Assembly: GCA_041304825.1 (NCBI GenBank) | Contig: JBFYMQ010000004.1 | Location: forward strand, 1-50,931 | Length of the DNA: 50,931 bases | Direction of reading: 5' to 3' | Origin: Thermoplasmatales archaeon | GTDB lineage: Archaea; Thermoplasmatota; E2; DHVEG-1 | Part shown: positions 8,866 to 39,161 of the stretch, piece after piece | How positions within the stretch are numbered: position 1 is the first letter of the stretch | How the letters are laid out: every line of letters starts with the position of its first letter | Translations under genes and position numbers: made by a program | The notes under the pieces: generated by a model | Seen by the model: the letters and a program-made list of their open reading frames with translations, nothing else | Database searches by the model: none | Told to the model about the DNA's origin: nothing

Positions 8866-9906
8866 ATGCGCATGGAATTCTGGAAATCTTGGCTTCAGGC
8901 TGATCCCACCGAATGGCTATTGGAAAAAAACAATCCTTCAGTACGATATTTTACCCTGCGCAATCTGTTAGAAAAACCAGATAAGAATTCAGAGGTAAAA
9001 GAAGCAAAACAAGAGATTATGAAAACAGGCAGTGTGCCAGTGATTTTATCAAAGCAGAAGAACAAAGGATATTGGGAAGAACCTGAGAGGTTCTATTCTG
9101 CGAAATACAAAGGGACCGTCTGGCAACTCATGATTCTTGCTGAACTCGGGGCTGATGGAAACGATGACCGTATTCGAAGCGCATGCGAATATATCCTTTC
9201 TTATTCCCGGGATGTAGAAAGCGGAGGTTATGCTTACTCCTCAAATACCAAAAAAGGCGGAGGACGTCACAGTGAAGTCATCCCCTGTCTTACAGGAAAT
9301 ATGATCTGGAGCTTGATTCGCCTCGGATATCTGAACGATCCTCGGATAAAACAAGGGATTGAATGGATCACCAACTACCAACGGTTCGATGACCGGATAG
9401 CAGAACCACCAAAAGGCTGGCCATACGATCGATTAAAAACGGGATGCTTCAGCAAACATTCCTGTCATATGGGTGCAGTCAAAACATTAAAAGCTTTAAC
9501 CGAAATCCCTGAAAACAAAAGGAATGCTGAAGTGAAAAGGACAATTGAACACGGAGCTGAGTACTTTTTGTTACATCATGTTTTTAAAAGCAGTCATAAC
9601 CTGGATCGTATACCAAAACCAGGGTGGCTGAAATTCGGTTTTCCACTGATGTATCAAACCGATGCATTGGAGATTCTTGGGATTTTAACAAAACTGGGAT
9701 ATCATGACCAACGGATGCAAGAGGCTATCAATATTATGATTTCAAAACAAGATGCACAAGGCAAATGGATACTGGAGAACACGTATAACGGACGGTATCA
9801 GGTAAACATTGAAACGAAAGGAGAACCAAGTAAATGGATTACAGTTAAGGCATTAGAAGTGCTGAACAGGTATTATGCTGATTCACCTAATAAACAACAA
9901 AGATGA
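8866..9906 (+). CDS. Alpha/alpha-toroid (prenyltransferase/terpene-cyclase-like) repeat protein, function unknown
   Basis: Cytoplasmic-looking 346-aa ORF with repeated aromatic/Gly helical-hairpin segments (GYWEEPERFYSAKYKGTVWQLMILAELG, GNMIWSLIRLGY, TDALEILGILTKLGY). Assignment rests on pattern only. Confidence 0.4.
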   Translation: MRMEFWKSWLQADPTEWLLEKNNPSVRYFTLRNLLEKPDKNSEVKEAKQEIMKTGSVPVILSKQKNKGYWEEPERFYSAKYKGTVWQLMILAELGADGNDDRIRSACEYILSYSRDVESGGYAYSSNTKKGGGRHSEVIPCLTGNMIWSLIRLGYLNDPRIKQGIEWITNYQRFDDRIAEPPKGWPYDRLKTGCFSKHSCHMGAVKTLKALTEIPENKRNAEVKRTIEHGAEYFLLHHVFKSSHNLDRIPKPGWLKFGFPLMYQTDALEILGILTKLGYHDQRMQEAINIMISKQDAQGKWILENTYNGRYQVNIETKGEPSKWITVKALEVLNRYYADSPNKQQR

Positions 9907-9945: not shown

Positions 9946-12900
9946 ATGCATATTTCGGATGGGTTGCGAGCCTATGGCATAGACAGAAAAGCAGTCATTA
10001 TTCTAGTGATACTGCCGTTTCTTCTTATCAGCCTGAATTGTGTTGAGGCATCCCCGGAGAACAACCTTTCTTCTCCGTCTCACGTGTCACTTGGTGATTC
10101 TGTTCTCATCGCAGGTGTTTTCCAGTACCTCGATGTGTCGCTCCCAGCTGAGCATGAAAAAATCTGCATCATCGCCTTCAATGGAAATACAGAACCAGAA
10201 CAACAAATTCGATCTGAGAGGAATTACTACAAATGGGAATACGACAATGGTGTATGGAAGGATACCAGCAAATATGATACCTCGTCTATCGATCCGTCTC
10301 GCTGCTCTAAGGATAACACAACTTACTCGTTTTATCTCAGAATCTCACAGAAAGCGAACCCTGGTAGCTGGACGATTAAGATACTCGTCGATGACAAAGA
10401 AACCTCCTCAATAGCTTTTCAGGTAATCATCGGTGATTTTTGTCTGTTCTTTTCCATGATCACTAGTGTTTTTGAACCAACTCTGAAACAAAAGAACCTG
10501 CTCTCTGAAGACGAATTACGATGTTGTTATAAGCAAAAAAAACAGGAAGTATCTGAAGCAAGAATCGAGAAACTCGTTGATAACATCCTTAATAAGCAAC
10601 ACACGCAATCAAATGAAGATAAGTCTTTGGGTAAAACAACAGATTCGTACAACGACCCAACCGAATCTAAAAGCACTCAGGAGTCCATACGAACAGCGAT
10701 TTCTCAATATCCTCGAACCAAACTAAAGGAACCAATACATAAGAAAATCAACACGTTGGTTTTTATTAGAACTCGGCAGGGGAGTAATGGTTTTTGGTCA
10801 CATGGGTCAGATGGTCTGAAGAGAATTTTTATCATTGTTGTGATGACTCTTTTGTTAACCGCTTCCATACTACCAATGGTTTTACTGATGGGGAAAAATG
10901 AAAATACTTGTGATATCACGATTATCAACAATCACAGTTATCCGCTCATCGGTGGAAACTGGACCGTACTTTTTACAACCGTTGGCTGCGCTGATTTGAC
11001 TATTACCGCAGTCAATGGAACAAGTTGGAGTAATACTGATTTGAATGCTGATTTAAAATTTTTACACTGTGACAATGGAAATCAGACCGTAGACTATTCT
11101 TGGATTAATGATTCTGTGTATATCCCAAATTTTTCCTCCAATATCACCTGTTCTGAGGTCTCTCAAGTCCTCACGCCTGGTGTTCATGTTCTTCTGTTCC
11201 GATTCGGTGATGCCATAGCATTTGCCTATAATCTTGCCTCAGAAAACTGGCTGCAAACCAGTACAAGTGATTTCAATAACGGAACAAAGACGAACATCAA
11301 TGTGAGTAACGGATCTTTTCATTTACAGGAGCATTATTACCTTCGTAATTTTTCGCGCATTCATAACGAGGGATTCGAGGGAAGCTGGCCACCTTCTGGC
11401 TGGTCTGAGGATCCAGTAGGAAATAATTGGAATAAGGAAGGTGACCGGTCATATGCGAGCGCCTACTCAGCGGATTTCGATGGAGCGGGTGGGTCTGGGG
11501 GCGCCTCAGGAAACTTACTTTCGCCTGGTATGAACTGCTCAGGTTCCAATGTCACTGCGATTTATGTGAAATTTTGGGCATATGAGGATAACGTCGATGA
11601 CGGAGAATATTATCTCGATTACTACGATGGGACAAACTGGGATCAGATCACACGATTAGATAATTTTGGGACTGACGTATGGACCCAATACTCACAGAAG
11701 ATTACAGATTCACAGTACTTCAAGTCGAACTTCCAGATACGATGGAGGGTCGTCGGACTTAACAACAACGAACATGTGTATGTCGACTTCGTGAATGTGA
11801 CTGTGGAGCGAAATGAGAGTGGTTATTATTCTACAGGCAGCCTGCTTTCATCAGCGTATGATACCACCAGGAATGCACCTGATTACAACAACATAAACGT
11901 CGGAAATACTGCACCTTCTGGTACAACCATCACAACCTGGATGCGGACTGCTGAAACACAAGTCAATCTTTCTACAGCAACCTGGTATTCATCTATCAGT
12001 CAGGTTCCTGATAAACGCTGGGTGCAATGGAGGATCAATCTCACGGGCAATACCTATCTGACTCCCACGATTGCTGATGTCAATCTCACCTGGACATATG
12101 ATAATGAATATCCAATCTCAAAAGTCAATACTCTATCACCCTATTGGCAAAAAACAACACTGTTACAGATTTCAGTCACAGCCTCTGATAATGGAACCGG
12201 AATAAAAGAGCTTAGCCTATATTATAACTATAGTGCAAATAATGTATCAGGCTGGTCTGGTTGGAACAAATATGGAACCAATGACACGACGAGCCCATAT
12301 TCCTGGTCGTTTACACCTCCGCAGGGTGATGGATATTATCGATTTTATAGTAAGGCAATTGATGGAGAGTTAAACACAGAAGCTGCTCCAGTTATACCTA
12401 GTTTCGATGCGTCATGTGGTATTGACACGGTCAAACCTTCGTCGCGATTAGATAATATCACTCCCTATTGGTATGTTGAACCAGATAGGGATGTGGTCAT
12501 CAATTGTTCGACCGCAAGTGATTCTCTTAGTGGATTACAAAATATTTTGTTATATTATCGATATAGAATTGATAATGCATCTCCCTGGGGATCCTGGCAG
12601 CTTTTTAGTTCAGATACAGCTGTCCCATGGTCTTGGATTTTCACCTTCCCAAGAGCCAAAGGTTTCTATCAGTTCTACAGTATCGCAGTTGATAACGCTA
12701 GTAATGCTGAAGACCCTCCGACTACACCGGATAACGATACAGAATGCGCATATAACTCCTCAAAACCCTATTCTGAAGTAGACGCGATTAGCCCCTACTG
12801 GCGTAGCTCATCGCTTTGGATAACAGCACAGGCAACAGATTTTAACGGTAGTGGCTTACAGAATGTGACATTATACTATTACTACAGCTCAGATAATAAT

Positions 12901-15591
12901 ACCTGGTCCAACTCCTATTTATTTGGTGTCGATACAACCCCCTGGAACACAATCTCCTGGGTATTTACATTTCCTCTCGGAACCGGTTATTATCGTTTCT
13001 ACAGCCTTGCGATTGATAATGATACCAATATAGAATATTTTACAGGCAATGATACGACTGGTGGTTACGATGCCATCAAACCCTCATCACAAGTCGATGC
13101 AATTACTCCCTATTGGCACAATGCCACAAGTAATCCCCTCATAATTACAGTCACTACTTCAAATGATGCTCATTCTGGAGTGAAAAACATCACGCTTCAC
13201 TACCGTTATCGATCAAACAACGTATCAAGCTGGAATGCCGCAGTTTCGTATGGTCAAGACGAAACAACGCCCTGGGGCTGGAGTTTCAATTTTCCCAATG
13301 GAAATGGTCAATATCGGTTCTACAGTGTAGCACATGACACAGCAGGAAACACAGAAGATCCGCCCTCCTCCCCAGATTACGATACGCAATGCGGATACGA
13401 TACATCAAAACCAAACTCCCAGGTTGACCCTATCACCCCGTATAACATCACAGTGTCCCCCTTTTCCATTAGCGCAACCGCAAGCGATGATACGAAAAAC
13501 ATAACGATCTGGTATTATTACTCTTCTCAAAATTCAAGCTGGTGGAACCCCAACTGGCAATATAGAAAACAGCTGAACATATCAGGAAAAAACGGGGGAT
13601 ATCAGATGAAGATTGTCATCGGGAACAATAGCGGTGGAAACGTTACCTGTAATGGTCATGCTCAAAGCGATTTCGATGATATTCGCTTCGTTAGCTATTC
13701 AGATAATTCAACAGAACTCTCCTATTGGTTGAAAAACTATACCGCTGGAACACAAGCGACCTTCTGGGTCAATAATTCACGCAATGATTCCTACATTTTC
13801 TTGTATTACGGCAATACGAATGCATCAACGACAAGTAGCGGGGATAATACTTTTTATTTCTTCGATGATTTCTCAAATGGTCTTAGTAAATGGGTGATGA
13901 ACTCATGGAACACTGATTCTATTTTTGTTAATCAAAGTCAAGGAAACCCGAGTCCAGCGCTCAAACATCTGCCCGACAATTCCATTCCTGCAAATAGAAC
14001 ATATCAGGATACAAGGATTCGTACTAATTACAAAATCCTAAACGGAATTATCGAATATGATGTCTATCTAGCGGGAACCCCGCGGATTATCCATCAATTC
14101 GGATGGAGAGTAAATAGCCTTTCTTGGACAAACGGATATTGTTGGCGGTTACAGAATTCTGCAGGTGATGGAGGTTTTTTTGAATTTTCTGCTCCGACGA
14201 CATGGACCCAACTAGGAGCTGCGTTTCCTGTTGTCTCTACAGGCACCTGGTATCACATGAAAATAAATGTATCCGGTTCTACCTATTCATCAAAAATCAC
14301 ACCATCCGCACCGGCTGGTGATAGCGCTCGTTCAGTGACTGATTCAACAAAAACGACCGTTGATTACCTTGTTTCACATGTACATGGAGTAAGTATGAAT
14401 TCCGGAAATTATGCATTAGTGGATAATGTATTTGTAAGGAAATATTGGACAACACCACCGACATGGGATGGTGTTGGAAGCGAACAATCAGGATACACGA
14501 AATGGAATAATGCAAGCAATCCTGACACCAGCATTCCTTGGACATGGAATTTTAACTTTCCAGATGTATATGGATATTATTGGTTTTATTCCAATGCTAT
14601 TGACCTGAACGATAATATTGAATATATCCCGGATATAGCGGATGCCCGATGCCAATATATAAGGCCGTTTCCTCCGGTGATTAATAGTTATGATTTACGA
14701 AATACTAGTGGTTCGAAGCTCAACAACGCGACTGGTCTGCTTGATGTAAATAGCGAATATTATTTCACTGTCAATGTCACTGCAAAATACGGTTGGATAT
14801 ATTTAGATTATATCGACATTACCGCTTGGTACGATCAAGGAAGTGAAAGCAGCTCGTTCAATCACACAACTGGTGGAAATCTCAACATGTATCTGCGGTA
14901 TGAAAATGTGACGGGAAATGCTAGTTTTAAGCTTCTCTGGCCGAAAAACGAAGTAAAACTTATTACTACTAATTGTACCCAGACAATCGTCAATAGTTCT
15001 ACAAGGATTATCAAAATAAGTTTCAAACCTCTCAATCAAACTCGATGGGCTTGTAGCAATAATACATGGGATTCCGCTGTAAACACGACAAATGATCCTT
15101 TCTCATGGAATTTCAATATCACTGCTATTGACACCAGTGGTCTAAAATCATGGAAGAACGATGAATATGGCATCTATAAATTTGCTATGTTATTACCTGA
15201 TAAAAACTGGGTGGATGTTCGAGCTCCACCAGGATATAATGCAACGACCAACATCGTGAATGTCACGTATTGTTCAAACTATGATTATAACATCAGTATT
15301 TATTTTGAAGAAAATCTGACGAATGTGTCATCAGGTGATATCATCCCTATTGCAGATAATGTTTTTATCTGTGCAAATGCGGATATGAACGATGATATCA
15401 CCAGTGATATGATGTTTAACGGGATCCGGGAGATTAACGCTATTGATATCATCAACAATTCTGGTATCTTTCATAGGAACAATACGAGTCAATATGTTCA
15501 TGTCCAATTCAATGTATTCATCCCGTTTGGTACTATCCAGGGGGAATATAGCGCTCATGTTGCTACGAAGATAAAATTCAATGAACATTAG
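9946..15591 (+). CDS. Giant (1881 aa) multidomain cell-surface glycoprotein / adhesin-like protein
   Basis: Signal-like N-terminus. N-module (aa 36-163) is homologous to ORF 18400. Hydrophobic segments at aa 164-177 and 293-315. MAM/'choice-of-anchor J'-like region (EGFEGSWPPSGWSED..FQIRWRVVG). ~4.5 tandem ~110-aa repeats. DUF2341-like (WQYRKQLNI..DIRFVS..YIFLYYGN) plus LamG-like insert. C-terminal ~310 aa is paralogous to ORFs 15740 and 17044. Very dense in N-x-S/T. Confidence 0.9.
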   Translation: MHISDGLRAYGIDRKAVIILVILPFLLISLNCVEASPENNLSSPSHVSLGDSVLIAGVFQYLDVSLPAEHEKICIIAFNGNTEPEQQIRSERNYYKWEYDNGVWKDTSKYDTSSIDPSRCSKDNTTYSFYLRISQKANPGSWTIKILVDDKETSSIAFQVIIGDFCLFFSMITSVFEPTLKQKNLLSEDELRCCYKQKKQEVSEARIEKLVDNILNKQHTQSNEDKSLGKTTDSYNDPTESKSTQESIRTAISQYPRTKLKEPIHKKINTLVFIRTRQGSNGFWSHGSDGLKRIFIIVVMTLLLTASILPMVLLMGKNENTCDITIINNHSYPLIGGNWTVLFTTVGCADLTITAVNGTSWSNTDLNADLKFLHCDNGNQTVDYSWINDSVYIPNFSSNITCSEVSQVLTPGVHVLLFRFGDAIAFAYNLASENWLQTSTSDFNNGTKTNINVSNGSFHLQEHYYLRNFSRIHNEGFEGSWPPSGWSEDPVGNNWNKEGDRSYASAYSADFDGAGGSGGASGNLLSPGMNCSGSNVTAIYVKFWAYEDNVDDGEYYLDYYDGTNWDQITRLDNFGTDVWTQYSQKITDSQYFKSNFQIRWRVVGLNNNEHVYVDFVNVTVERNESGYYSTGSLLSSAYDTTRNAPDYNNINVGNTAPSGTTITTWMRTAETQVNLSTATWYSSISQVPDKRWVQWRINLTGNTYLTPTIADVNLTWTYDNEYPISKVNTLSPYWQKTTLLQISVTASDNGTGIKELSLYYNYSANNVSGWSGWNKYGTNDTTSPYSWSFTPPQGDGYYRFYSKAIDGELNTEAAPVIPSFDASCGIDTVKPSSRLDNITPYWYVEPDRDVVINCSTASDSLSGLQNILLYYRYRIDNASPWGSWQLFSSDTAVPWSWIFTFPRAKGFYQFYSIAVDNASNAEDPPTTPDNDTECAYNSSKPYSEVDAISPYWRSSSLWITAQATDFNGSGLQNVTLYYYYSSDNNTWSNSYLFGVDTTPWNTISWVFTFPLGTGYYRFYSLAIDNDTNIEYFTGNDTTGGYDAIKPSSQVDAITPYWHNATSNPLIITVTTSNDAHSGVKNITLHYRYRSNNVSSWNAAVSYGQDETTPWGWSFNFPNGNGQYRFYSVAHDTAGNTEDPPSSPDYDTQCGYDTSKPNSQVDPITPYNITVSPFSISATASDDTKNITIWYYYSSQNSSWWNPNWQYRKQLNISGKNGGYQMKIVIGNNSGGNVTCNGHAQSDFDDIRFVSYSDNSTELSYWLKNYTAGTQATFWVNNSRNDSYIFLYYGNTNASTTSSGDNTFYFFDDFSNGLSKWVMNSWNTDSIFVNQSQGNPSPALKHLPDNSIPANRTYQDTRIRTNYKILNGIIEYDVYLAGTPRIIHQFGWRVNSLSWTNGYCWRLQNSAGDGGFFEFSAPTTWTQLGAAFPVVSTGTWYHMKINVSGSTYSSKITPSAPAGDSARSVTDSTKTTVDYLVSHVHGVSMNSGNYALVDNVFVRKYWTTPPTWDGVGSEQSGYTKWNNASNPDTSIPWTWNFNFPDVYGYYWFYSNAIDLNDNIEYIPDIADARCQYIRPFPPVINSYDLRNTSGSKLNNATGLLDVNSEYYFTVNVTAKYGWIYLDYIDITAWYDQGSESSSFNHTTGGNLNMYLRYENVTGNASFKLLWPKNEVKLITTNCTQTIVNSSTRIIKISFKPLNQTRWACSNNTWDSAVNTTNDPFSWNFNITAIDTSGLKSWKNDEYGIYKFAMLLPDKNWVDVRAPPGYNATTNIVNVTYCSNYDYNISIYFEENLTNVSSGDIIPIADNVFICANADMNDDITSDMMFNGIREINAIDIINNSGIFHRNNTSQYVHVQFNVFIPFGTIQGEYSAHVATKIKFNEH
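12112..13560 (+). repeat. In-frame tandem ~110-aa (about 330-nt) Ig-like repeats within the giant ORF (R1-R4 complete, R5 first half)
   Basis: Each unit follows the pattern KPxSxVDxIxPYW..(T/S)ASDxxSG(I/L)xN(I/V)xLYYxY..W..W.W.F.FPxxxGxYxFYSxAxDxxxNxE. Boundaries at roughly 12112, 12433, 12763, 13078 and 13408. Confidence 0.85.
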
Positions 15592-15691
15592 AAAAGAGAG
15601 ATTTTTTATGGTTCTGAGTATTCATTGCCGAGGAGTTTTGACCCAAAGTTTTATATGATGGAGAATGAATCTCTGACCTGCACACTAACAT

Positions 15692-15710
15692 AATTACATC
15701 ATATGTAATT
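15692..15710 (+). promoter_or_regulatory. Perfect 8-bp inverted repeat (AATTACAT-N3-ATGTAATT), candidate operator upstream of ORF 15740
   Basis: Read directly from the sequence. It lies ~30 nt upstream of ATG 15740 and downstream of a TTTTATATGA TATA-like box near 15648. Confidence 0.35.
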
Positions 15711-15739
15711 GTAAGATAGAATTATTGAAGGCAAGAAGG

Positions 15740-16846
15740 ATGGGAAAACAGAATATATACTCAGTTCTCGTTGTCGTCGTGCTAGTAATATCATTATTTA
15801 CTGGTATGTCCTGTCTTGAGCCATATCTTGTAAAAAACGTAAGAGCTAATCCGGGGGATATCAGTGAAGAGTGGTATAACGAAACGACCTTAAACGTGAC
15901 CGTTCTTTATAGAGAACCGCGTATTAATTGGTATGATTTTCAATATAATCAGGGTGGGACCTGGGTTTCTCGGTTGAATGCGCAAAGTGATGTGAATGAT
16001 AGTGCTGAATATCGATTCATTGTCAATGTTAGCGCTGATAACGGATGGGAGAATATCACATATATCAATGTCTCAGCATGGTATGATGAAGGAAATGAAA
16101 ACACGGTATACAATCAGACGCTTGGAGGGAATCTCAATTTGTACTTCGAATATGAAAACCTTACGGGAACCCCATCATGGCAAATGCTATGGCCGACGGG
16201 TGGCGAGGTGACAGGATTTTCATACTCCGAGACGATTGTTCGCGATCCTGTAGGAAGTCCACGTTTTACCGATTGTCATAATATCACATTTTCTTTCGTT
16301 CCTGGATATCAATTCCGGTATGCTTCCGGGGATGGGAGTTGGAATACTTCTCGTAATGCGACGAATGATGCAGAATCCTGGAACTTTAGAATCTCTGCGT
16401 CCAACGAACAAGGGTACGTCAGTTGGATACATGATGAATTTGGGATTTATTCTTATACCGAGATCCTTAGTGCAGGATGGCCAGCGATCTACGGATATCC
16501 TGGGGAAAATGCGACCGCTGAGACGAATATCACCATGGTGACCCGGTCGAATGGTAACTATTCCCTCTCCGTTGATGTCGGGAATTTAACCCATGAAACA
16601 CATCCTACTGCTAATATAACCCGGAAAAGTATTTGGATCCGAGGTGGTGATTTAGACATATCGAGTAATTTTACTGGTGCTTCTGACTTGCTCTACTTTT
16701 ATGGATCCGCGATAGCGTATCATATTTCCCGGGCAAATGGAACCAGTCTTACCACGAGTGATATTGAGTACAAATGTAATATCCCACTTGGGCAGACTGC
16801 AGGAGAATATACTGCTCCTATTAGCTATCATCTCGTGACAACCTAA
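15740..16846 (+). CDS. Secreted N-glycoprotein, paralog 1 of the giant protein's C-terminal domain (candidate structural subunit)
   Basis: Signal peptide (IYSVLVVVVLVISLFTGMSC..VRA|NPGD). 18 N-x-S/T sequons counted by eye. Shares AWYDEG, GGNLNLYFEYENLTG, SWNFRISA, DEFGIYSY and the terminal strand IPLGQTAGEYTAPISYHLVTT with ORF 17044 and aa 1573-1881 of the giant ORF. Track start is TTG 15725. Confidence 0.85.
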   Translation: MGKQNIYSVLVVVVLVISLFTGMSCLEPYLVKNVRANPGDISEEWYNETTLNVTVLYREPRINWYDFQYNQGGTWVSRLNAQSDVNDSAEYRFIVNVSADNGWENITYINVSAWYDEGNENTVYNQTLGGNLNLYFEYENLTGTPSWQMLWPTGGEVTGFSYSETIVRDPVGSPRFTDCHNITFSFVPGYQFRYASGDGSWNTSRNATNDAESWNFRISASNEQGYVSWIHDEFGIYSYTEILSAGWPAIYGYPGENATAETNITMVTRSNGNYSLSVDVGNLTHETHPTANITRKSIWIRGGDLDISSNFTGASDLLYFYGSAIAYHISRANGTSLTTSDIEYKCNIPLGQTAGEYTAPISYHLVTT

Positions 16847-17043
16847 GAATAAGGCTCTCGAGTATCTTACTTCTTTTTGCTTCAGTACTCTTGTTCTTGT
16901 GCTCTGATTTTTCATGGTTTTTATCGAGATGCTCTCCAGGGTTGACTCTATTCCAGAGTGACGTTTTGACGAAATATCTTTAAATATCGTGACTGCCAAA
17001 ACGCATACCTGACATGTGTTAGCATGTTGTAAAGTAACTCGAT

Positions 17044-18192
17044 ATGGAACGGAAGAAGGTGAAAAAAATGGAGATGGAACAAAAGAGAAAATTATTTTCT
17101 ACTCTCGTAGGAATAACAATAATTAGCTCTTTGGTGGTCAATATCTTTCTTATGAGCCCCCTCATCATGATTGGGAAGGCCGATCCTGGTGACATTCCTC
17201 ATATTTGGCATAATTCAACAACATTAAACGTCACCGTCCTTCATTTAGAACCAAGAATCCTCTGGTATGATTTCCAGTATAACCAGACTGGGACCTGGGT
17301 TACAAAACTAAACGCACAAAGCGATGTGAACAACAGCGCAGAATACCGATTCATCATCAATATCAGCAGCGATCAGGGCTGGGATGATATTGAATTTGTC
17401 AATATTTTTACATGGTACGACCAAGGAAATGAAACGAGCACCTATAACCAAACACAAGGTGGAAACTGGAATTTCTATTTGCAATATGAAAACACCACAG
17501 GAACCGCTGTCTGGAGGATTCTCTGGCCTCATGGTGGAGAGTTTACACAAGGAACCTATACCGATAGAGTTGAACATGACCCTTATGGGAGTTCAGGGTT
17601 TACTGAATGTCATAATCTTTCCTTTTCGTTTGTCCCAAGTTATCAGGTACGATATGCCCCCGGTGATGGGGTATGGGATGATACCTATAACACTACAGAT
17701 GATGTAGAATCCTGGAACTTTATCATGGAAGTTATTGATAGTGGTGAAGATGCTCCAGATCCTATAACGATTTGGATAAGAGATGAGTTTGGTATCTATT
17801 CCTATAGTGAAATCGTTAGTGCTGGATGGCCAACTATCATTGGTCACCCTGGAGAAAACGCGACAGCGAACAGTAATATAACGCTTGTCACACGTTCAAA
17901 TGGTAACTACTCTCTTACCACAGATGTTGAAAATCTCACGCATCGTTCATTTCCAGCAACAATCTCTCGAGAGCGAATCTGGGTGCGTGGTGGTGACTTA
18001 GATTCGTTTGACAATTACACTGCGATCAGCGGTAATATTTACTTCTACGGGTCACTTGGCATATACCATCTTGCACAGGCGAACGGTACCGCTCTGACAA
18101 CCAATGATGTTCAGTATAAATGTGACATCCCGCTGGGTCAAATCGCGGGAGACTATACTGCCCCCATTCGTTATCATCTGACGACAACATAG
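17044..18192 (+). CDS. Secreted N-glycoprotein, paralog 2 (candidate structural subunit)
   Basis: Collinear with ORF 15740 and similar to it throughout (EPRILWYDFQYNQTGTWVTKLNAQSDVNNSAEYRFIINIS.., IPLGQIAGDYTAPIRYHLTTT). Signal peptide ends ..IGKA|DPGD. Confidence 0.85.
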   Translation: MERKKVKKMEMEQKRKLFSTLVGITIISSLVVNIFLMSPLIMIGKADPGDIPHIWHNSTTLNVTVLHLEPRILWYDFQYNQTGTWVTKLNAQSDVNNSAEYRFIINISSDQGWDDIEFVNIFTWYDQGNETSTYNQTQGGNWNFYLQYENTTGTAVWRILWPHGGEFTQGTYTDRVEHDPYGSSGFTECHNLSFSFVPSYQVRYAPGDGVWDDTYNTTDDVESWNFIMEVIDSGEDAPDPITIWIRDEFGIYSYSEIVSAGWPTIIGHPGENATANSNITLVTRSNGNYSLTTDVENLTHRSFPATISRERIWVRGGDLDSFDNYTAISGNIYFYGSLGIYHLAQANGTALTTNDVQYKCDIPLGQIAGDYTAPIRYHLTTT

Positions 18193-18242
18193 AGGGACAA
18201 TACATCCCTTATTTCTCTTTTTCTTTTATTCATTTTTTTTTA
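18193..18242 (+). terminator. Hairpin plus oligo-T terminator after ORF 17044
   Basis: GGGAcaatacaTCCC hairpin followed by several T-runs (tctctttttcttttattcattttttttt). Confidence 0.55.
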
Positions 18243-18399
18243 AAATTTTTATCTCTAATAAATTGTTATAATATTTTCGTTTTTCCTTTGATTCTTAGGA
18301 AAGAATAATTTTTTCAAAGAAAACCTTTAATAGACGAAATAAGATAAGAAATATGGATGGGTAAATGCACAAACTCAATTAATTACAGGAGAGTGGAGA

Positions 18400-19749
18400 A
18401 TGGGACAACACTATAAGAAACAAGGGATCGTTTTTTGTATTCTTCTCCTGTATATTTCCGTAGTATTCTCTGCGGTCTCATCAGCGCAGGATGCGACCTT
18501 ATCGATACGTATGTTAGACGGAGAACAACAAACCCGTTTTAACACACCTGTACTTGTTGCAGGCGTCTGGCATTATATGGACATCACCACAGATCAGGAT
18601 TTCGATGAATTGTTACTCAGAATCTACAAAGGAATTGTACTTCCAACTGGGGTGAAAAATGAAACAAATTACTACGAATGGAGCTATGACCAAAATACTG
18701 CTGCCGTCTGGTCCGATGAAAGCGGTTATGGGATCGAGTACATCCAACAGGGATTGTGCCAAAAGACGAACACTCAGTATAGTTTTTGCATCGGATTAAA
18801 TGATTTCATGCCAAACATCATTGATTATTATGAGAACTGGACCATCGAAGTATCCCATGACGGAACAACCATTCATTCAACACGCATCGTGGTTGAAAAA
18901 CCAAAAACCGGTGTTTCCTTAAGTAAACCCTCATCTATTATCTTTCATGTTGATCCGTTCACCATAATGGATGCTATCGGTGATAATTTTTTCAAGATAG
19001 GCAACATCGGGAATGTCCCGCTGAACGTCGATTTTGATACAGAAACCTATAGCGAAGTCGAAATAAACGATATGAATAAAAAATTTTTACCAGATGAAAT
19101 CATCACCCACTATGTCACGATTCATTCAAAGAGTTGGCCACCTGGGTTTAAAAATATCGAGATTCAATTAAATGGGTCCTATCCGCAATCGTATTTCGTT
19201 GATACCAATGCCACCGTCACTTTGTACACCTCCTTTATCATTGATGTGCCGCTGCTGGTAATCTATGTTGGACATAGTAATTACAAAATTGATGAAATCC
19301 AGGGGACAGGGATCACCTTCCAGTATGTAGAAACATTGAATATGTACGAGGGCGAAACACGAGACATTACCGCCTATGTATCTGGGAACGGGGCTGTCAC
19401 CGCGCAGATTTGGGCTGATGAAAAAAACATTAGCGCGTTGAAATTCTATGACAATGGCATAGAGGCGCAATCTCCCCTTTCTTTTACTTCCACGAATACC
19501 TCAGAGCGGATCATCAAGATAACTGTGAAGGCACTCAGCGAAGGAACAACAGGGGTTCTCACATATCAGATTACTGGGAGTGGTATCACGAAAACATACG
19601 CCACGCAGATCCGTATCGGACCACCAGAGTCCGCCCCTGAAGAAGAATCAGGAGGTTCTCTTTCCGTTATGCAACTTGTTGTCATTGGCATTGTTTTGCT
19701 CGTTGTCATTTATATGATCGTTACATACCTACGAAATCGAAAGAGGTAA
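18400..19749 (+). CDS. Type-I membrane-anchored surface protein whose N-module matches the giant protein's N-module
   Basis: Signal peptide plus C-terminal TM and basic tail (LSVMQLVVIGIVLLVVIYMIVTYLRNRKR). N-module shares VLVAGVWHYMDI/VLIAGVFQYLDV, NYYEWSYD/NYYKWEYD, TQYSF/TTYSF and WTIEV/WTIKI with giant ORF aa 36-163. GGAGAG RBS. Confidence 0.8.
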   Translation: MGQHYKKQGIVFCILLLYISVVFSAVSSAQDATLSIRMLDGEQQTRFNTPVLVAGVWHYMDITTDQDFDELLLRIYKGIVLPTGVKNETNYYEWSYDQNTAAVWSDESGYGIEYIQQGLCQKTNTQYSFCIGLNDFMPNIIDYYENWTIEVSHDGTTIHSTRIVVEKPKTGVSLSKPSSIIFHVDPFTIMDAIGDNFFKIGNIGNVPLNVDFDTETYSEVEINDMNKKFLPDEIITHYVTIHSKSWPPGFKNIEIQLNGSYPQSYFVDTNATVTLYTSFIIDVPLLVIYVGHSNYKIDEIQGTGITFQYVETLNMYEGETRDITAYVSGNGAVTAQIWADEKNISALKFYDNGIEAQSPLSFTSTNTSERIIKITVKALSEGTTGVLTYQITGSGITKTYATQIRIGPPESAPEEESGGSLSVMQLVVIGIVLLVVIYMIVTYLRNRKR

Positions 19750-19759
19750 CAGACGGAAA

Positions 19760-20455
19760 ATGAGGAAAGCCATTGTATCCTTTTTCACACTGTTTATGGC
19801 TGTGATCCTTTGCTCTGCCGTTCTGCCGTTGCACGCAAACGCAGGTCAAGCAGGTGTAGGAGTCATAAACGTTCCACCAAAATACGGTTACATCCGAGTA
19901 GAAGAGCAAGGTGATTACTTTAGAGTGTACCTCAATATCTCTGATTATAACTCCTGGGCTGATGTGTACAATGTTAGCGTCAGCCTTGATAATTATGGGA
20001 CAAAACTCTCCACGTTTCTTTTCCAGCAATATAAAAATCTGGACTCTTTTGTTGAGATCAACGAGTTCAGTGAAACACCAAAGAAAAGACATTTATTAGA
20101 TATCGAAAAATGTTTTTTCCAAAAATCTAATGGACAGGAAACAATCGATGAACGCTGTGATATCGCTATACGCTTTGTTTTTCAAAAAACTTTTTTTACT
20201 GGTCTTAGCATTGTGATTAATGACCGGGCAGGATCTGCTCCGGCGGAGGCGTATATCTATTACAACAGTGAGGAGTCTCTGAGAAGTGGCAACACGATAG
20301 TGATTCCATGGATAGATTCTCAAATAACTCTGACCCTCCCTCCGTATCTAATTGATCTCATCGCAATAATACTTGCAATATTTGGTGTGATGTACTATCT
20401 TAAAAAGACAGGGATCCGAGAAAAAAGCAAAAAGGCTTACAAAAAAATCTCATAG
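19760..20455 (+). CDS. Small type-I membrane-anchored secreted protein, unknown function (11 nt after ORF 18400; likely co-transcribed)
   Basis: Signal peptide (FFTLFMAVILCSAVLPLHANA) and C-terminal TM with Lys-rich tail (LIDLIAIILAIFGVMYYLKKTG..KKAYKKIS). Confidence 0.7.
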   Translation: MRKAIVSFFTLFMAVILCSAVLPLHANAGQAGVGVINVPPKYGYIRVEEQGDYFRVYLNISDYNSWADVYNVSVSLDNYGTKLSTFLFQQYKNLDSFVEINEFSETPKKRHLLDIEKCFFQKSNGQETIDERCDIAIRFVFQKTFFTGLSIVINDRAGSAPAEAYIYYNSEESLRSGNTIVIPWIDSQITLTLPPYLIDLIAIILAIFGVMYYLKKTGIREKSKKAYKKIS

Positions 20456-20585
20456 TCGCTTATGGCTTTTTCCTAACTGTTTTTTTATATTTTTCTCGAT
20501 ATATCTTCTGATAAAATTCATTTTCATATTCTTCTTCAAAGCCACCTACGAACCACAATTCATCTTCGAACTCACCCCACTGTAT

Positions 20586-21587
20586 TTGTTGTCTGGATTC
20601 AGTAATGTACAACTCCTATCGCTCTCGTTCTTGATCATCGTATTAGATATGGTTCTTCACCTCCAGTCAAGTAAACGAAATTTACTGCTCTCGTTCCTTC
20701 CAACTGCACTTATGATTATCGGAGCTGGATTTACAATCATGTTCAACCCGATGGATCTGGCGTATCTCTTCCATTATGTGCTCTTTGGCTGTCTTTTGCT
20801 TATCGTTCTCATCGATTATCAATATATCTTGAAAGGTGTGGACGCCCCAAGATTCTTCAAGAGAAAAGAACCTGTACCACTGCAAATCAGCGAACATGAG
20901 CCAGTCTTGGCATCACGAGCACCATTATTCTTTGCCAAGAACGTAAAACCTGTTCAGCAACCCCCTGGCACACTTGCTCCGGAGAATGTCGCTGATTTGA
21001 AGATAATATCGGATGCAATGGTCCAAAGAATGCAAAATGTCTTAAACGACCTTGAAAAAAAGGCTGCGCGAATCGAACAATTGGAAGACAAAATCCAGCA
21101 GCAACACACCATTCCGTTCTCCGCTGAAAAAACGTTCCCACCCTCCCCCACTCCGCTTCCTGAAGCAGCAGAAAAAACCCCTGTGACTAAGGAAAAACTA
21201 ATCAACACGATTTGCTCGGAAGAGAAAATCATCTTAAAAGAACGAATCGAAAATCATCTTATCATTGATGAGATGGATCACGTCGTCGCAGTCGTACAGC
21301 GGGGGATTTTCAGAGACATCAGTAACTCGTTTGCTGATTTTCTTGGCTATAACCGCACGGAGCTTCTGCAGAAGAATTTTTTTGTTTTTATCGCTCCTCG
21401 GGGTTTTAACGATGCAAGGAAATACTATCTCAATCGATTAAAAGGAATCGCTACGAACTCCTTTAAAACGGTGTTACTGACAAAAGAACAAACCGAAATA
21501 CCCGTCGAAATCACTGTAGTCCCGACAGTGTACAAAGGAGATTCCGCTGAGTTCATTAGTATAAAAGAAATCAAAGACCAATCGTAA
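20586..21587 (+). CDS. Membrane protein with three N-terminal TM helices, a coiled-coil/Pro-rich linker and a C-terminal PAS domain, with no output domain
   Basis: TM segments LLSLSFLIIVLDMVLHL, LPTALMIIGAGFTIMF, YVLFGCLLLIVLIDY. PAS-like C-terminus (FRDISNSFADFLGYNRTELLQKNFFVFIAP..PVEITVVP). Start uncertain (TTG 20586 or ATG 20649). Confidence 0.65.
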   Translation: MLSGFSNVQLLSLSFLIIVLDMVLHLQSSKRNLLLSFLPTALMIIGAGFTIMFNPMDLAYLFHYVLFGCLLLIVLIDYQYILKGVDAPRFFKRKEPVPLQISEHEPVLASRAPLFFAKNVKPVQQPPGTLAPENVADLKIISDAMVQRMQNVLNDLEKKAARIEQLEDKIQQQHTIPFSAEKTFPPSPTPLPEAAEKTPVTKEKLINTICSEEKIILKERIENHLIIDEMDHVVAVVQRGIFRDISNSFADFLGYNRTELLQKNFFVFIAPRGFNDARKYYLNRLKGIATNSFKTVLLTKEQTEIPVEITVVPTVYKGDSAEFISIKEIKDQS

Positions 21588-21758: not shown

Positions 21759-24248
21759 ATGAAGAAAATAACAATTCTGTTTATTGTAGGTATTCTGATA
21801 GGTTCCACCATGGGGGCTATTGGAACACAAGGCAAGCAAGAAACTGCACAGTCTCTCTCAGAACATCTTAGCACGCCATCCATCCAAAAACAAACAATGA
21901 ACAATGAAGGATATCTTCTGATCGAACTTACTGGGACATCGACGTTTCAGACAACCGCCGGTCAACCGCAGCTACCGAAGATCGTCCGTACCATAGAGCT
22001 TCCGTTTGGGGTGACCGATATCCGTGTTTCTCTTACGCCTGGTGCCATTACCACCCAGCATATCGATCAAGAGATACGTCCTGCTCAACAGATGATCCTT
22101 CTCACTCAAGAGTCTCAAAGCATGGCTGCTTCCACGACACCCAAAGATGCAGAAGTCTATGCCATGACCACGCCATATCCTGAGACTTGGTTTACGTCAT
22201 CGGTTGGTGTTGGTTTGAATAAAAACAACGAGCATGTGACCTTTGTTGCGGTTCATTATTATCCGATTCGATACACACCAACCACAGGGACCCTTCATAT
22301 CGCCACCGATGCAGATCTCTCCATTACATATTCAGCACCTAGCCATAATCCGTTTCCATTAAAAAGTGAATATAACCTTGTCATCATCGCACCAAAATCC
22401 TTCGAAAAAGCACTTCAACCACTCATCGAACATAAAAACAGCCATGGAGTCCTGACGGTTTTGAAAACAACCGAGGACATCTATAATGAATCTACTGGTG
22501 TTGACAAACCAGAACAGATTAAATATTTCATAAAAAATGCAATTGAGACCTGGGGTGTCGAATACGTATTGTTAGTGGGTGGATTAAAAAATATGGTGTT
22601 TGCCAAACCTCGTGATAACCCAAACGAAGGAACCAAGGGATGGCATCTGCCTGTCCGGTACACCAACCTCTATGACAACCCGAAATTCCCATTACACTCA
22701 GAAAGCACACTCTATGACCCTGGTGTCCTCAGCGATCTGTACTACGCAGATATCTATGAGGCAGGGGGTAACTTCTCCAGTTGGGACCCCAATAGCGATG
22801 GAATATTTGCCGCATGGAGAATGGAAGGGTATGAAAATGATACAGGTATTGATTTGTACCCAGATGTCGCCCTCGGTCGACTTGCATGTGTCAGTGTCTC
22901 TGAAGTACGAACCGTAGTGAAGAAAATCATCACCTATGAGACGACAACCTATGGCTCAGAATGGTTTAAGAAAATGACGGTCATCAGCGGCGACGGTTTC
23001 CTTGACCAAGAGGATTTGAACATCCAATGGGACACCGCTAGCTTACCAACAGGAACCTACACGATTTACGCGCAAAGCAGTAACCCTGCTGCAGAATATG
23101 GACCCGTTGAAACAATCAATGTCACGGTCGATAAAACCAAAGCAACCAACCTTACCTTCAACCATGATGATCACTTGCGGATTCATGAGTACCCTGGATT
23201 GCCAATCGCTGAGATTGTGACTGTTTCTGAAGGAAATATTCTAGGGAATACAGACTTTACTTATACTCCTGGTGAAAACGAGGCGTATTGTAACGAATTC
23301 TATTTCTGGGGAAACATGAGTTACCTTTCTGGTGTTCTTACTATTCGAGGGAAAAGCTATGATCCTAAACCGTATGGGAATCTCACGAGTATCCATGTCT
23401 GGATAAAAAATAGCGCAGACACTATCGTGTTTGAAAACTGGCGTAACGACACAGAGATGTACTACGAAGGAGAATACACCACCGGTGAACAAGCGTTACT
23501 TGGTCGAGGTGGAGCACTGTATTATATGCCTGAGGAATTTGAACGTGATATCATCTGGGCTTCCAATGGTTTATTCACTGGACAACAAGACGTCATCGAC
23601 GCCTGGGATGAAGGTGCTGGTTTTATGTTCATCTCTGGTCATGGCAGTCCTAACGTCTGGGCTGATCACTACCCTGGCGTTCCTGGGAATAGGGCATATG
23701 GGAGCGTCACCGGTTTATCGGTCACCACGCTACGTCCATGGCCACCATTTTTCAACACACCGATCTTCCCGATGGACACCATCAGAAATGAAGAGAGACT
23801 GCCAATAACCGTTATTGGTGGTTGTCATAACAGCCAGTTCAACGTCTCCATGGTGTATGGTTTCCTTGAGGGAATGATTTATCTGTTCCCAAACTTCCCA
23901 CAAATGCATATGTGGTGTCACGGGCAACCCGTCCCTGAAACCTTCAGCTGGAGACTCATTCGAAACCCCCATGGTGGTTCGATTGCGACAATGGGAAACA
24001 CCGGGCTTGGGTATGGAATGCCTGGTGTTGATCTCACCACGGGTGGTGGTGACGGATGGATCACTATCGAATTTTTCAAGCAATACGGCACAGACGGACT
24101 AGATATTCTCGGACAGGCGTATCAACAAACCCTTACCGCCTATGTCAGCACCTTTGATATGACAGATCTCGCAGCAGGTCATCCCAAATCTGTCCAACAG
24201 TGGGTGTTGCTCGGTGACCCTTCATTAAAAATCGGTGGATACGAATAA
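21759..24248 (+). CDS. Secreted peptidase C25 (gingipain-like, clan CD) family protein
   Basis: Signal peptide MKKITILFIVGILIGSTMGAIG. C25-type N-terminal region (YNLVIIAPKSFEKALQPLIEHKNSHGV, VEYVLLVGG). Catalytic-type His in FISGHGSPNVW (codon 23640-23642) and Cys in VIGGCHNSQF (23823-23825). Confidence 0.8.
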   Translation: MKKITILFIVGILIGSTMGAIGTQGKQETAQSLSEHLSTPSIQKQTMNNEGYLLIELTGTSTFQTTAGQPQLPKIVRTIELPFGVTDIRVSLTPGAITTQHIDQEIRPAQQMILLTQESQSMAASTTPKDAEVYAMTTPYPETWFTSSVGVGLNKNNEHVTFVAVHYYPIRYTPTTGTLHIATDADLSITYSAPSHNPFPLKSEYNLVIIAPKSFEKALQPLIEHKNSHGVLTVLKTTEDIYNESTGVDKPEQIKYFIKNAIETWGVEYVLLVGGLKNMVFAKPRDNPNEGTKGWHLPVRYTNLYDNPKFPLHSESTLYDPGVLSDLYYADIYEAGGNFSSWDPNSDGIFAAWRMEGYENDTGIDLYPDVALGRLACVSVSEVRTVVKKIITYETTTYGSEWFKKMTVISGDGFLDQEDLNIQWDTASLPTGTYTIYAQSSNPAAEYGPVETINVTVDKTKATNLTFNHDDHLRIHEYPGLPIAEIVTVSEGNILGNTDFTYTPGENEAYCNEFYFWGNMSYLSGVLTIRGKSYDPKPYGNLTSIHVWIKNSADTIVFENWRNDTEMYYEGEYTTGEQALLGRGGALYYMPEEFERDIIWASNGLFTGQQDVIDAWDEGAGFMFISGHGSPNVWADHYPGVPGNRAYGSVTGLSVTTLRPWPPFFNTPIFPMDTIRNEERLPITVIGGCHNSQFNVSMVYGFLEGMIYLFPNFPQMHMWCHGQPVPETFSWRLIRNPHGGSIATMGNTGLGYGMPGVDLTTGGGDGWITIEFFKQYGTDGLDILGQAYQQTLTAYVSTFDMTDLAAGHPKSVQQWVLLGDPSLKIGGYE

Positions 24249-26454: not shown

Positions 26455-27027
26455 TTATTTCTTATATCGTGAATAGTAAATCAATATTATAGCGATTGCC
26501 ATTATGAATGACATGAACAGAAATCCTGGTGTTTCCATACATGTTTTAATTTCATTTTTGGAAGCATCAGCTATCTCAGATGGTATCCCGCCTTCGATAA
26601 TGTGCCCGAAATCACCAGTTTCACCACCATAGTCGTCACTAAGTAGGTATAACGCGGGTATTGTAAATTTTTGGGTATTATTGATAAAAAAATATTGTAT
26701 TGAAATTGCATATCGTGTATTTCCCCATTTCATGTAAAAGAACACTTCATGCATTACTTGACCATAATATGAAGTTTCTATGATACGATGATACCATTTT
26801 TTTTCTTCTAATTCACCTATTCTATCATTAAGTTCTAAATACTCTGTCGAAACGTCTGGGAAATTTGTTGGCAAGGGAAGAAAACAATCATCAAATTTTT
26901 CACTATATTGATTTAATATTTCTAAGACTTCTGATTGATAATTGATTTTATTTACTTCATCTTGCGCATTCACATTCATGGCGATTATGAAAAAACTTAC
27001 GATAACAATTATTACTCCTACTTTCAT
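26455..27027 (-). CDS. Hypothetical secreted/membrane-anchored protein
   Basis: Signal peptide MKVGVIIVIVSFFIIAMNVNA from ATG 27027 (GGGAG 5 nt upstream; track start is TTG 27051). C-terminal TM FLFMSFIMAIAIILIYYSRYKK. No recognisable family. Confidence 0.55.
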   Translation of the reverse strand: MKVGVIIVIVSFFIIAMNVNAQDEVNKINYQSEVLEILNQYSEKFDDCFLPLPTNFPDVSTEYLELNDRIGELEEKKWYHRIIETSYYGQVMHEVFFYMKWGNTRYAISIQYFFINNTQKFTIPALYLLSDDYGGETGDFGHIIEGGIPSEIADASKNEIKTCMETPGFLFMSFIMAIAIILIYYSRYKK

Positions 27028-27507
27028 AACACTCCCATAACAAAATAACAAAAGATAATTTATAATCTTTGCCCTGAGACGAAGTATCGATTTCAGAGAA
27101 TAACTACAGTTATGTAAATTTTTTTTGTGTTGTATATAAAGAAATAGTCTTAGAATTAATGACGAAAGATAAATAGAAAATTATGAAATAAATAAGGCAA
27201 CTCACTATCTCTAGCCGTGAAAAAAAATAATCACAAAAATTCTTTCCATGTTTTATTCAATTCTGTAAAAAATTACGAAAAAATAAAAAAATAATACGAT
27301 GAATCATCAATTCGTTCAACTTAAAGCAAAAAACTCTTTTATATCCAGAAAAACATGGTCAAATGATAGTGGATAATATGAAGGGGATCTCGCCTGAGGA
27401 ACATCTTATGAACAATAAGATTGAGGCGACACATGGAGGTATAACAGAAAGAGAGAGACGATCCTTTTCAATCCTCTAGAAATAAAAGAACAATTGGAGG
27501 AACAAGA

Positions 27508-39110: not shown

Positions 39111-39161
39111 TAAAAATCTTTGTTCGATGAAATTCTTACTTAAATAAAGGGATTGAAACCT

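Follow-up and report, generated by a model that had tools for sequence, protein, structure and literature searches.

Contig JBFYMQ010000004.1 of a Thermoplasmatales archaeon (assembly GCA_041304825.1) was analysed over a stretch of 50,931 nt, referred to here as the window. It carries a gene cassette that is a real, conserved and undescribed surface system of uncultured Thermoplasmatota. The locus layout was read from the open reading frames (ORFs) of the window and their translations. It consisted of a multi-domain protein of 1881 aa (the giant), two small secreted paralogs (PARA1 and PARA2), two membrane-anchored proteins (ANCHOR and P231) and a protein with four transmembrane (TM) helices and a PAS domain (the 4-TM protein), with a C25-family peptidase gene beyond the latter. 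All these ORFs were co-oriented on the plus strand (Table 1). Of its surface proteins, the giant and the paralogs are rich in N-X-S/T sequons. The surface proteins share modules, and they most likely build a putative membrane-tethered adhesive fibre or coat. Our preferred reading, to which we assign a probability of roughly 0.4, is a putative Sec-dependent, usher-less surface fibre or short fimbria made from paralogous beta-sandwich subunits.

The shared module was found by comparing the giant with its small neighbours. An earlier note on this DNA had claimed that the last ~310 aa of the giant are collinear with two secreted paralogs, and this was borne out: BLASTP aligned giant aa 1577–1876 with PARA1 aa 65–370, collinearly, at 35% identity (E 4e-41). 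The motif blocks quoted in the note were also present in the translations. PARA1 and PARA2 were 58% identical over 380 aa (E 4e-166). The copy in the giant begins at the position of PARA1 residue 65, and thus is without the conserved mature N-terminal segment of the paralogs. In the giants the module begins at P-x-I-N-S-Y-D-L. The N-terminal segment was present in the stand-alone forms and absent from the module copies of the giants.

The module had no match in Pfam, NCBIfam or PDB sequences, in keeping with the earlier statement that the domain belongs to no described family. PARA profiles built from two alignments found no PDB sequence at E <= 10. The N-module of ANCHOR, P231 and the 4-TM domain also had no Pfam, NCBIfam or PDB-sequence counterpart, and the ANCHOR and P231 profiles found nothing usable among PDB sequences.

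Searching a set of 5.8 billion proteins with PARA1 yielded 330 homologs, all hypothetical, and the named sources were metagenome-assembled genomes (MAGs) of Thermoplasmatota. When 1.84 billion cluster representatives were searched exhaustively with a profile, 292 clusters matched at E <= 1e-3. Among the best 150 of these 292, the module stood alone with a signal peptide in 46 and lay within a larger protein in 55. In 52 of the 55 large representatives it ended no more than 9 residues from the C-terminus, and these large proteins differed in their middle domains. A module that is either stand-alone or C-terminal on proteins with different middle domains corresponds to the architecture of adhesins with a pilin domain, and this argued for a fibre. 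The matches were confined to MAGs, and the family was absent from cultured Thermoplasmatales. PARA homologs were also seen on two contigs of 2.2–2.7 kb binned elsewhere, L041 (JABMRT010000024.1, binned as a KSB1 bacterium) and L058 (QMQQ01000052.1, binned as a Woesearchaeota archaeon); the latter also had the C-module of a giant and the beginning of an ANCHOR gene. Both contigs are probably mis-binned Thermoplasmatota, not transfers.

Synteny was followed by scanning one genome per species, which gave 70 loci, and by tblastn and ORF maps over 73 loci. Nearly all of the 70 loci were from Thermoplasmatota MAGs, the closest being UBA346 at 88%. The order large protein ending in the module, PARA (1–2 copies), ANCHOR, P231, 4-TM protein was kept in more than 20 loci, down to 23–45% identity. 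ANCHOR immediately followed PARA in nearly all loci, and the orthologous pair of PARA1-type and PARA2-type genes was kept in the close clade. Some genomes contained several loci with different giants, or solitary PARAs. The synteny of the giant, the paralogs and both anchors across MAGs suggested that they act as one functional unit.

The C25 peptidase gene behaved differently from these genes. It starts 1.3 kb after the end of P231, as the earlier note had stated, and the 4-TM gene lies between it and the anchor genes. The peptidase adjoined the cassette only in the closest clade and in two odd cases. Nearly all divergent loci had no such gene within 10 kb, and neither had L014, a relative at 72% identity whose sequence runs on for 5 kb downstream. 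Thus, of the co-occurrence proposed in the earlier note, the part concerning giant, paralogs and anchors held and the part concerning the peptidase did not.

The gap between ANCHOR and P231 was 10 nt, and the P231 and 4-TM genes overlapped in relatives. A TATA-like box was found 65–90 nt 5' of each of PARA1 and PARA2 (90 nt for PARA1), with oligo-T runs 3' of each. This layout is consistent with separate strong transcription of the subunit genes and a coupled anchor operon. The giant starts 40 nt after a gene for a squalene-hopene-cyclase-like (SQHop-cyclase-like) protein, and no TATA-like box was found between the two. The orthologs of PARA1 are 368 aa long, which makes the ATG at 15740 a likelier start than the alternative TTG.

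Hydropathy indicated an N-terminal signal-type (Sec) hydrophobic segment in every product except the 4-TM protein. Sequons numbered 73 in the giant, 18 in PARA1 and 16 in PARA2. Their density was 3.9–4.8 per 100 aa in these three proteins, versus 0.9–1.3 in ANCHOR and P231.

The N-termini of ~99 stand-alone homologs shared one pattern: a basic n-region, an h-region of ~20 aa and a c-region ending in x-A, followed by [ND]-P-G-[DN] and then by W-x-N-x-T-x-L-N-V-T-V, which is strand-like with alternating hydrophobics. The conserved Ala and the small residue at -3 agree with cleavage by signal peptidase I (a site of A-x-A type), the alternative that the earlier note had itself allowed. The note had also pointed to a basic residue before the A(N/D)PGD sequence as a possible cleavage site for a gingipain. 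The residue at this position was R, K, S, Q, C, N, G, M or T among the homologs, suggesting that the basic residue is incidental. Together with the missing synteny of the C25 gene, this removed the analogy with the gingipain maturation of type V pili.

An AlphaFold2 model of PARA1 from a 36-sequence alignment had a mean predicted local distance difference test (pLDDT) score of 76. It showed a signal helix and two beta-sandwich domains, aa 65–251 and aa 262–372. Residues 34–64 were left unplaced in the monomer, with pLDDT 40–58 and no secondary structure. On the other hand, the conserved C-terminal strand, which the earlier note had taken for the polymerising element, was an integral last strand of domain 2 (~10 strands in the monomer model) with pLDDT ~70–90. 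This claim was therefore not supported. If any strand is free, the model would point to the N-terminal one. By analogy with known systems, the strand-exchange logic may thus survive with the N-terminal candidate strand in place of the C-terminal one.

P231 is related to the subunits. Its aa 28–84 matched PARA1 aa 53–127 in hhalign (92.7%, E 4.4e-7) with a diverse alignment, and the start of PARA domain 1 (82%, E 1e-5) with a local alignment; the P231 match ran to aa 84/96. The match spans the N-terminal strand and the start of PARA domain 1. P231 is thus a membrane-anchored relative of the subunits, and its own mature N-terminus would be that strand. When the two PARA domains, the three ANCHOR domains, the two halves of P231 and the base domain of the giant (see below) were compared by hhalign, P231 and PARA domain 1 were the only related pair.

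Hydropathy gave both ANCHOR and P231 a signal peptide, a C-terminal TM helix and then a basic tail, as in type I membrane proteins. This upheld the earlier description of the two ORFs as membrane-anchored partners. The AlphaFold2 model of ANCHOR (pLDDT 87.6) showed three tandem Ig-like domains, a short linker and the TM helix. The N-module formed a confident beta domain (aa 33–166), the first strand of which was placed at pLDDT ~87, versus the 40–58 of the PARA segment; this contrast is a point for the fibre. The top Foldseek matches of ANCHOR were ASH/PapD-like Ig arrays (E 1e-12), and PrgB and CfaE-CfaB were also on the list. In a public protein set the window ANCHOR is a 412-aa product that starts at an internal Met38 and has lost its signal peptide (18400–18511). 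Most orthologs are 449 aa long with a signal peptide, and the longer start at 18400 was therefore preferred.

The N-module recurs in the giant. Giant aa 14–129 aligned with ANCHOR aa 7–129 at 27% identity (E 4e-14), which agreed with the homology claimed before. This module is followed in the giant by a TM-like segment, a charged linker that is conserved in relatives, and a second TM segment. In simpler giants without an N-module, the counterpart of this second segment in the alignment was the N-terminal signal sequence. For this reason, the window giant looks like a fusion of an ANCHOR-type N-module and TM segment with a conventional secreted giant.

From these features the following assembly can be proposed. 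Signal peptidase I would expose the strand-like N-terminus on PARA and P231, and the exposed strand would pair with the module of the subunit that comes before. The giant, having the module but no strand, would act as the first subunit, at the adhesive tip. PARA1 and PARA2 would form the shaft. P231, with a strand and a TM helix, would end the fibre and tether it to the membrane. ANCHOR, with its three Ig-like domains on a TM helix, may be a membrane-bound chaperone or platform, and the 4-TM protein a partner in the membrane whose cytoplasmic sensor domains can be exchanged. The C25 peptidase would be an unrelated or accessory neighbour. The proposal draws on a triad of an acceptor-only large protein, small subunits with both strand and module, and a strand-bearing, membrane-anchored P231. 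As to the earlier interpretation as a whole, two parts were retained. One is the synteny of the anchors; the other is the likeness to strand-complementation pili in how the roles are divided among genes, with a large, variable protein that has the module at its end, small free-standing subunits, and relatives held in the membrane. Maturation by C25 and donation of a C-terminal strand were given up.

Several results weigh against the fibre. PARA1 was modelled as two apparently complete beta-sandwiches. Foldseek of this model (pLDDT 76) against the PDB gave no match at E <= 1e-3; the best was at E 1.3e-3 with a TM-score of ~0.2, and the top list contained generic tandem-Ig proteins (MSCRAMM N2N3, Gram-positive pilins, arrestins and RbmA, TM-score ~0.2). 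Conservation across the family was 0.32 for the N-terminal strand versus 0.42–0.46 for the domain cores. The window giant has two TM-like segments beyond a signal peptide, and the tip position requires a predicted cleavage after the second. The PARA–ANCHOR pair was tandemly duplicated as a unit in L032, L035 and L046, and such a 1:1 duplication is no less compatible with a stoichiometric complex than with a shaft and its chaperone. Codon bias, used as a proxy for expression, was uninformative, the effective number of codons being 52–61 across all cassette genes, with no sign of high expression. PARA1 scored 20.1 bits (E 5.4e-4) against NCBIfam NF058581 (CPR_Pam_pilin_C), below the cut-off of 55 bits, and this model matched 9 of 36 close and 3 of 47 diverse members at E <= 1. 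Homology to the Pam pilins by this route was rejected as too weak and patchy, and kept as a lead only.

Some of these results would be expected of a non-filamentous coat of stalks and caps. Each PARA would sit on one ANCHOR, at the N-module far from the membrane, and P231 would provide a second tether; together they would form a glycoprotein canopy or unordered exterior layer. The giant would be a coat-integrated adhesin docking by its PARA-like module and its own ANCHOR-type N-module. We regard this as a serious alternative, somewhat less probable than the fibre. The adjacency and paired duplication of PARA and ANCHOR, the membrane-spanning segments of the window giant, and the closed, complete look of both AlphaFold2 models agree with it. 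The occurrence of an ANCHOR N-module and a PARA-like module in one giant chain is a Rosetta-stone hint that the two modules interact. Sequon-dense PARA and giant over sequon-poor ANCHOR and P231 fit an exposed canopy over buried stalks. Moreover, cultured Thermoplasmatales have no S-layer and show an unordered exterior protein layer of ~20 nm and uncharacterised composition, to which such a coat could correspond. However, the family is absent from these cultured organisms, in which the layer was seen, and the proteins have no similarity to known S-layer proteins in Pfam, NCBIfam or PDB sequences. Several loci per genome with different giants, and solitary PARAs, would be unusual for a main envelope protein. 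The coat also leaves unexplained why the giants systematically lack the N-terminal segment and why P231, a relative of PARA domain 1, starts with that strand. That such a variety of large proteins consistently have the module at the C-terminus is a further point against it.

It is unlikely that the proteins do not assemble together at all, being independent paralogous surface or binding proteins (lectin-like or substrate-capturing) of a sediment archaeon that degrades proteins or polymers, with modules shared by duplication and shuffling only. Invariant polar residues in PARA domain 1 (D121, N136, E238 and W219/N220) could form a putative ligand or Ca site, solitary PARAs exist, and other multi-domain secreted proteins and peptidases abound in the window (Big_7, FG-GAP/PKD, PPC, C25 and M19). 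Nevertheless, five gene families that stay together in a strict order, even between deeply diverged lineages, favour a complex or pathway. Further points against independence are that ANCHOR, P231 and the 4-TM gene are translationally coupled and that the module lies strictly at the C-terminus.

That the C25 peptidase matures or sorts the subunits (by an Arg/Lys cut, or by PorU-like processing of the C-terminal module) for polymerisation by the C-terminal strand is very improbable: it carries a signal peptide and a propeptide, is kept nearby in the closest clade and is weakly similar to PorU-type sortases (46 bits), and the subunits resemble FimA/Mfa1 in size and in having two beta-sandwich domains, but 46 bits against a 420-bit cut-off reflects the common C25 fold, and the patchy synteny, the unconserved basic residue, the missing lipobox, the integral and confident C-terminal strand and the absence of type V pilins from the 50 listed Foldseek matches of PARA1 all argue against it.

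Table 1. Features of the cassette and its surroundings in the window (coordinates of the whole stretch)
Feature	Position	Strand	Basis or remark
Giant, 1881 aa, variable multi-domain surface protein with PARA-like C-terminal module	9946..15591	+	ORF, orthologs
Giant N-module, aa 36–163	10051..10434	+	homolog of the first Ig-like domain of ANCHOR (N-terminal, distal to the membrane)
Giant TM-like segment (aa 158–176), charged ~120-aa linker, second TM (aa 296–314)	10417..10887	+	hydropathy
Giant base domain, aa ~318–445, motif IINxxSYPxxGGxW	10897..11280	+	tblastn, BLASTP, motif listing
Giant, four tandem ~110-aa Ig-like repeats, aa 726–1160, variable part	12121..13425	+	BLASTP E 3e-20 to 3e-28
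Giant, DUF2341 + LamG-like region, aa ~1205–1510	13558..14475	+	Pfam DUF2341 E 9e-17 at aa 1242–1317; LamG by eye only
PARA-like two-domain module at extreme C-terminus of giant	14662..15588	+	35% identity to PARA1
PARA1, putative secreted two-beta-sandwich glycoprotein subunit	15740..16846 (alternative TTG start 15725)	+	AlphaFold2, homologs
PARA1 mature N-terminal segment, aa 41–64, ANPGD..W.N.T.LNVTV, candidate free/donor strand	15845..15916	+	conservation, AlphaFold2
PARA2, paralogous putative subunit	17044..18192	+	58% identity to PARA1
ANCHOR, 449 aa: signal peptide, 3 tandem Ig-like domains, linker, C-terminal TM helix, basic tail	18400..19749	+	AlphaFold2, hydropathy
P231, 231 aa: signal peptide, domain related to the first part of PARA domain 1 (led by an N-terminal strand), C-terminal TM helix	19760..20455	+	hhalign, hydropathy
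4-TM + PAS protein, fourth core gene	20439..21587 (first canonical start 20586)	+	Pfam PAS_9 E 5e-9
C25 (gingipain-family) secreted peptidase, peripheral	21759..24248	+	Pfam Peptidase_C25 E 3.6e-50
SQHop-cyclase-like gene, peripheral	8866..9906	+	Pfam SQHop_cyclase_C E 3e-7
Big_7 protein, 822 aa	53–2521
FG-GAP + PKD protein, 750 aa	4347–6599	-
Purple-acid-phosphatase-N-like protein, 389 aa	25154–26323
PPC-domain protein, 1241 aa	27508–31233
M19 dipeptidase	39153–40268

Among the proteins from the giant to the C25 peptidase, the only Pfam matches were DUF2341 in the giant, PAS, and Peptidase_C25 with its propeptide. Orthologs of the giant in relatives were 1869–1899 aa long. The base domain stood directly after the signal or TM segment in all giants examined and gave 39 BLASTP matches; with giant aa 320–725 as query, the tblastn matches in divergent loci were confined to ~110 aa. 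The middle part of the giant is variable, with different content in different loci. Its Ig-like repeats were detected by searching one repeat against the whole protein; BLAST of the whole giant against itself gave the identity match and no repeats. A fifth Ig-like repeat was split, its first ~43 aa (aa 1159–1201, nt 13420–13548) and last ~55 aa (aa 1515–1569, nt 14488–14652) enclosing the ~300-aa DUF2341/LamG-like insert. By eye, a representative of 1977 aa (P0158) had a long run of repeats like S-x-D-x-G-x-T-W (BNR/sialidase type) between the base domain and the C-terminal module. Other giants had DUF2341 + LamG or FN3/PKD-like middle domains, making the payload highly variable.

The most conserved part of the 4-TM protein was its N-terminal membrane domain. 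The cytoplasmic C-terminal domain was swapped between lineages, being PAS, a zinc ribbon, DUF4332/HhH-like, or none (L064:3113–4270, L032:14328–15227 and L046:13398–14693, compared with 20586–21587 of the window). Conserved E-P, D..H, H-Y and D residues lay inside the TM helices, which hints, from sequence, at a catalytic or ion-binding membrane domain. Pfam gave no family for the membrane domain on six orthologs, and a word-indexed search with it found 3 close matches, none annotated. The conserved TM1 is encoded in frame at 20439–20586, upstream of the first canonical start (TTG 20586). This interval contains no ATG, GTG or TTG; the L001 ortholog begins MKKHSHRLW where the window reads TKKSHSRLW. 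The start may be non-canonical, the sequence may contain an error, or the gene may be decaying.

The rest of the window was rich in other large secreted or peptidase-type proteins, several of them syntenic with the cassette in the close clade. The SQHop-cyclase-like protein (alpha/alpha toroid repeat), which has no signal peptide, was conserved upstream only in that clade (L004, L008–L011, L013, L015, L019 and L020). A 198-aa ORF on the minus strand (26455–27051) had a GC content of 0.31 and a third-position GC content of 0.26, versus ~0.42–0.46 in its neighbours, and no Pfam match. It may be foreign or non-coding.

Uncultured Thermoplasmatota of sediments, soils and digesters are abundant, and their cell surfaces are essentially unknown. 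The cassette is a phylum-wide candidate for the display of adhesins, with a shaft or cap subunit, variable giants, two membrane tethers and a 4-TM partner. If strand complementation is true, it would represent another independent origin of usher-less donor-strand assembly and would offer a portable C-terminal module with which to display proteins on the surface. If the coat is true, components of the exterior layer of Thermoplasmatota would be identified. Under either reading, at least four of the protein families have no Pfam or NCBIfam model.

The cassette is not a member of any named family, and its logic resembles that of strand-complementation pili. The former was concluded because none of the comparisons that could be run established membership; a tip-adhesin architecture was found as an analogy only.

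Type V pili of Bacteroidota (FimA/Mfa1) have subunits of two beta-sandwiches (transthyretin-like domains), tip, shaft and anchor paralogs in one operon, and maturation by gingipains (C25). Their subunits are exported as lipoproteins and become lipid-anchored before they assemble. The PARA proteins are similar in size and in their two beta-sandwiches. Unlike type V pilins, the ~99 stand-alone PARA homologs had no conserved lipobox Cys and no conserved Arg/Lys cleavage site in their N-termini, and the C25 gene is outside the conserved cassette. FimA and Mfa1 were not among the 50 listed Foldseek matches of PARA1. Similarly, the C-terminal domain (CTD) that is processed by PorU in the type IX secretion system is ~80 aa long, whereas the module is ~310 aa long and also stand-alone; the C25 peptidase of the window falls far below the PorU cut-off and is not syntenic with the cassette.

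Two-component S-layers (SlaA canopy and SlaB membrane stalk) are like the cassette in that a soluble glycosylated outer protein (here, a sequon-rich one) is encoded beside a membrane-anchored Ig-like stalk and co-duplicated with it. There was no homology, PARA is far smaller than SlaA, and many large proteins carry the module again as a C-terminal tag. An S-layer is the main 2-D lattice of the envelope and comes from a single dominant, very highly expressed gene; several loci per genome argue mildly against one here.

The archaeal donor-strand filaments are the Sulfolobus threads (Saci_0406/0405), the TasA-like bundling pili (AbpA) and the Pyrodictium cannulae (CanA). They share with the cassette the use of Sec and signal peptidase I, heavy glycosylation (sequons in the cassette), the lack of a dedicated ATPase machinery, and small conserved gene clusters that include a cap-like paralog and membrane proteins without an assigned role. 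Their N-terminal tail is donated to the next subunit, as proposed here, and the threads also have an isopeptide bond between subunits. On the other hand, their subunits are single-domain proteins of ~150–250 aa, without giant adhesins carrying the subunit module and without TM-anchored subunit paralogs. No homology of the cassette to them was found by Pfam or by profiles against PDB sequences. For TasA, there was no Peptidase_M73/camelysin-like match in Pfam, NCBIfam or PDB sequences, and no peptidase S26 gene in the cassette, where TasA operons have a dedicated signal peptidase of the SipW type. The structure of the Saci_0406 thread is published and its sequence is thus expected in the PDB, where the PARA profiles gave no match at E <= 10.

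Chaperone-usher pili consist of two-domain adhesins (FimH/PapG), major subunits (FimA/PapA), a terminator (PapH) and a chaperone (PapD). The adhesin has a variable N-terminal part and a C-terminal pilin-type module without an N-terminal extension, and the major subunits carry this extension. The terminator donates a strand but stops growth. Genomes have multiple operons with different adhesins. The C-terminal position of the module in the large proteins and the giants without the N-terminal segment recall this as an architectural analogy only, and the resemblance of ANCHOR to PapD-like/ASH Ig arrays and CfaE-CfaB is generic. Unlike these systems, the cassette has no usher, periplasm or soluble chaperone, its host is an archaeon without an outer membrane, and its module is two full beta-sandwiches (~310 aa) instead of one incomplete Ig domain. 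No Usher or PapD Pfam match was found on any cassette protein, and PARA had no sequence or significant fold match to any chaperone-usher pilin (PDB profiles and Foldseek).

In its logic of tip, major subunit and anchor, the cassette most closely resembles, by analogy, the Pam pili of bacteria of the candidate phyla radiation (CPR). These have PamA/B pilins, PamC/D membrane-anchored chaperones, a PamT tip and a PamR anchor; they use Sec, pilins of two domains and PapD-like chaperones anchored by a TM helix, their tip has no strand, and their terminator is TM-anchored and bears one more strand at its N-terminus (bioRxiv 10.64898/2026.03.03.709456). Both systems have Sec signals (here, on all but the 4-TM protein), no usher, no outer membrane and pilins or subunits of two beta domains (~350–450 aa). 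The Ig-like partners on a C-terminal TM helix correspond to ANCHOR, which has the right topology and a putative chaperone role. The strand-less, acceptor-only tip would also be shared, and the terminator follows the logic proposed for P231, the topology of which likewise fits. They differ in that the donated strand of Pam is an inter-domain linker, whereas the candidate here is the mature N-terminus, and in that the Pam tip is a single truncated Ig domain and not a giant multi-domain protein. The cassette further has a core 4-TM protein, an archaeal host and sequon-rich subunits.

We suggest, tentatively and with the odds against it, that the cassette may represent an archaea-specific class of strand-complementation fibres, of independent origin from chaperone-usher, type V, TasA, thread, cannula and Pam pili. 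The ~310-aa module would serve both as shaft subunit and as a universal C-terminal plug for giant adhesins at the tip, P231 would be a half-subunit that terminates and tethers the fibre, and ANCHOR and the 4-TM protein would form the assembly platform. In some lineages, including that of the window, the adhesin would be fused to an anchor-type N-module behind an internal signal sequence.

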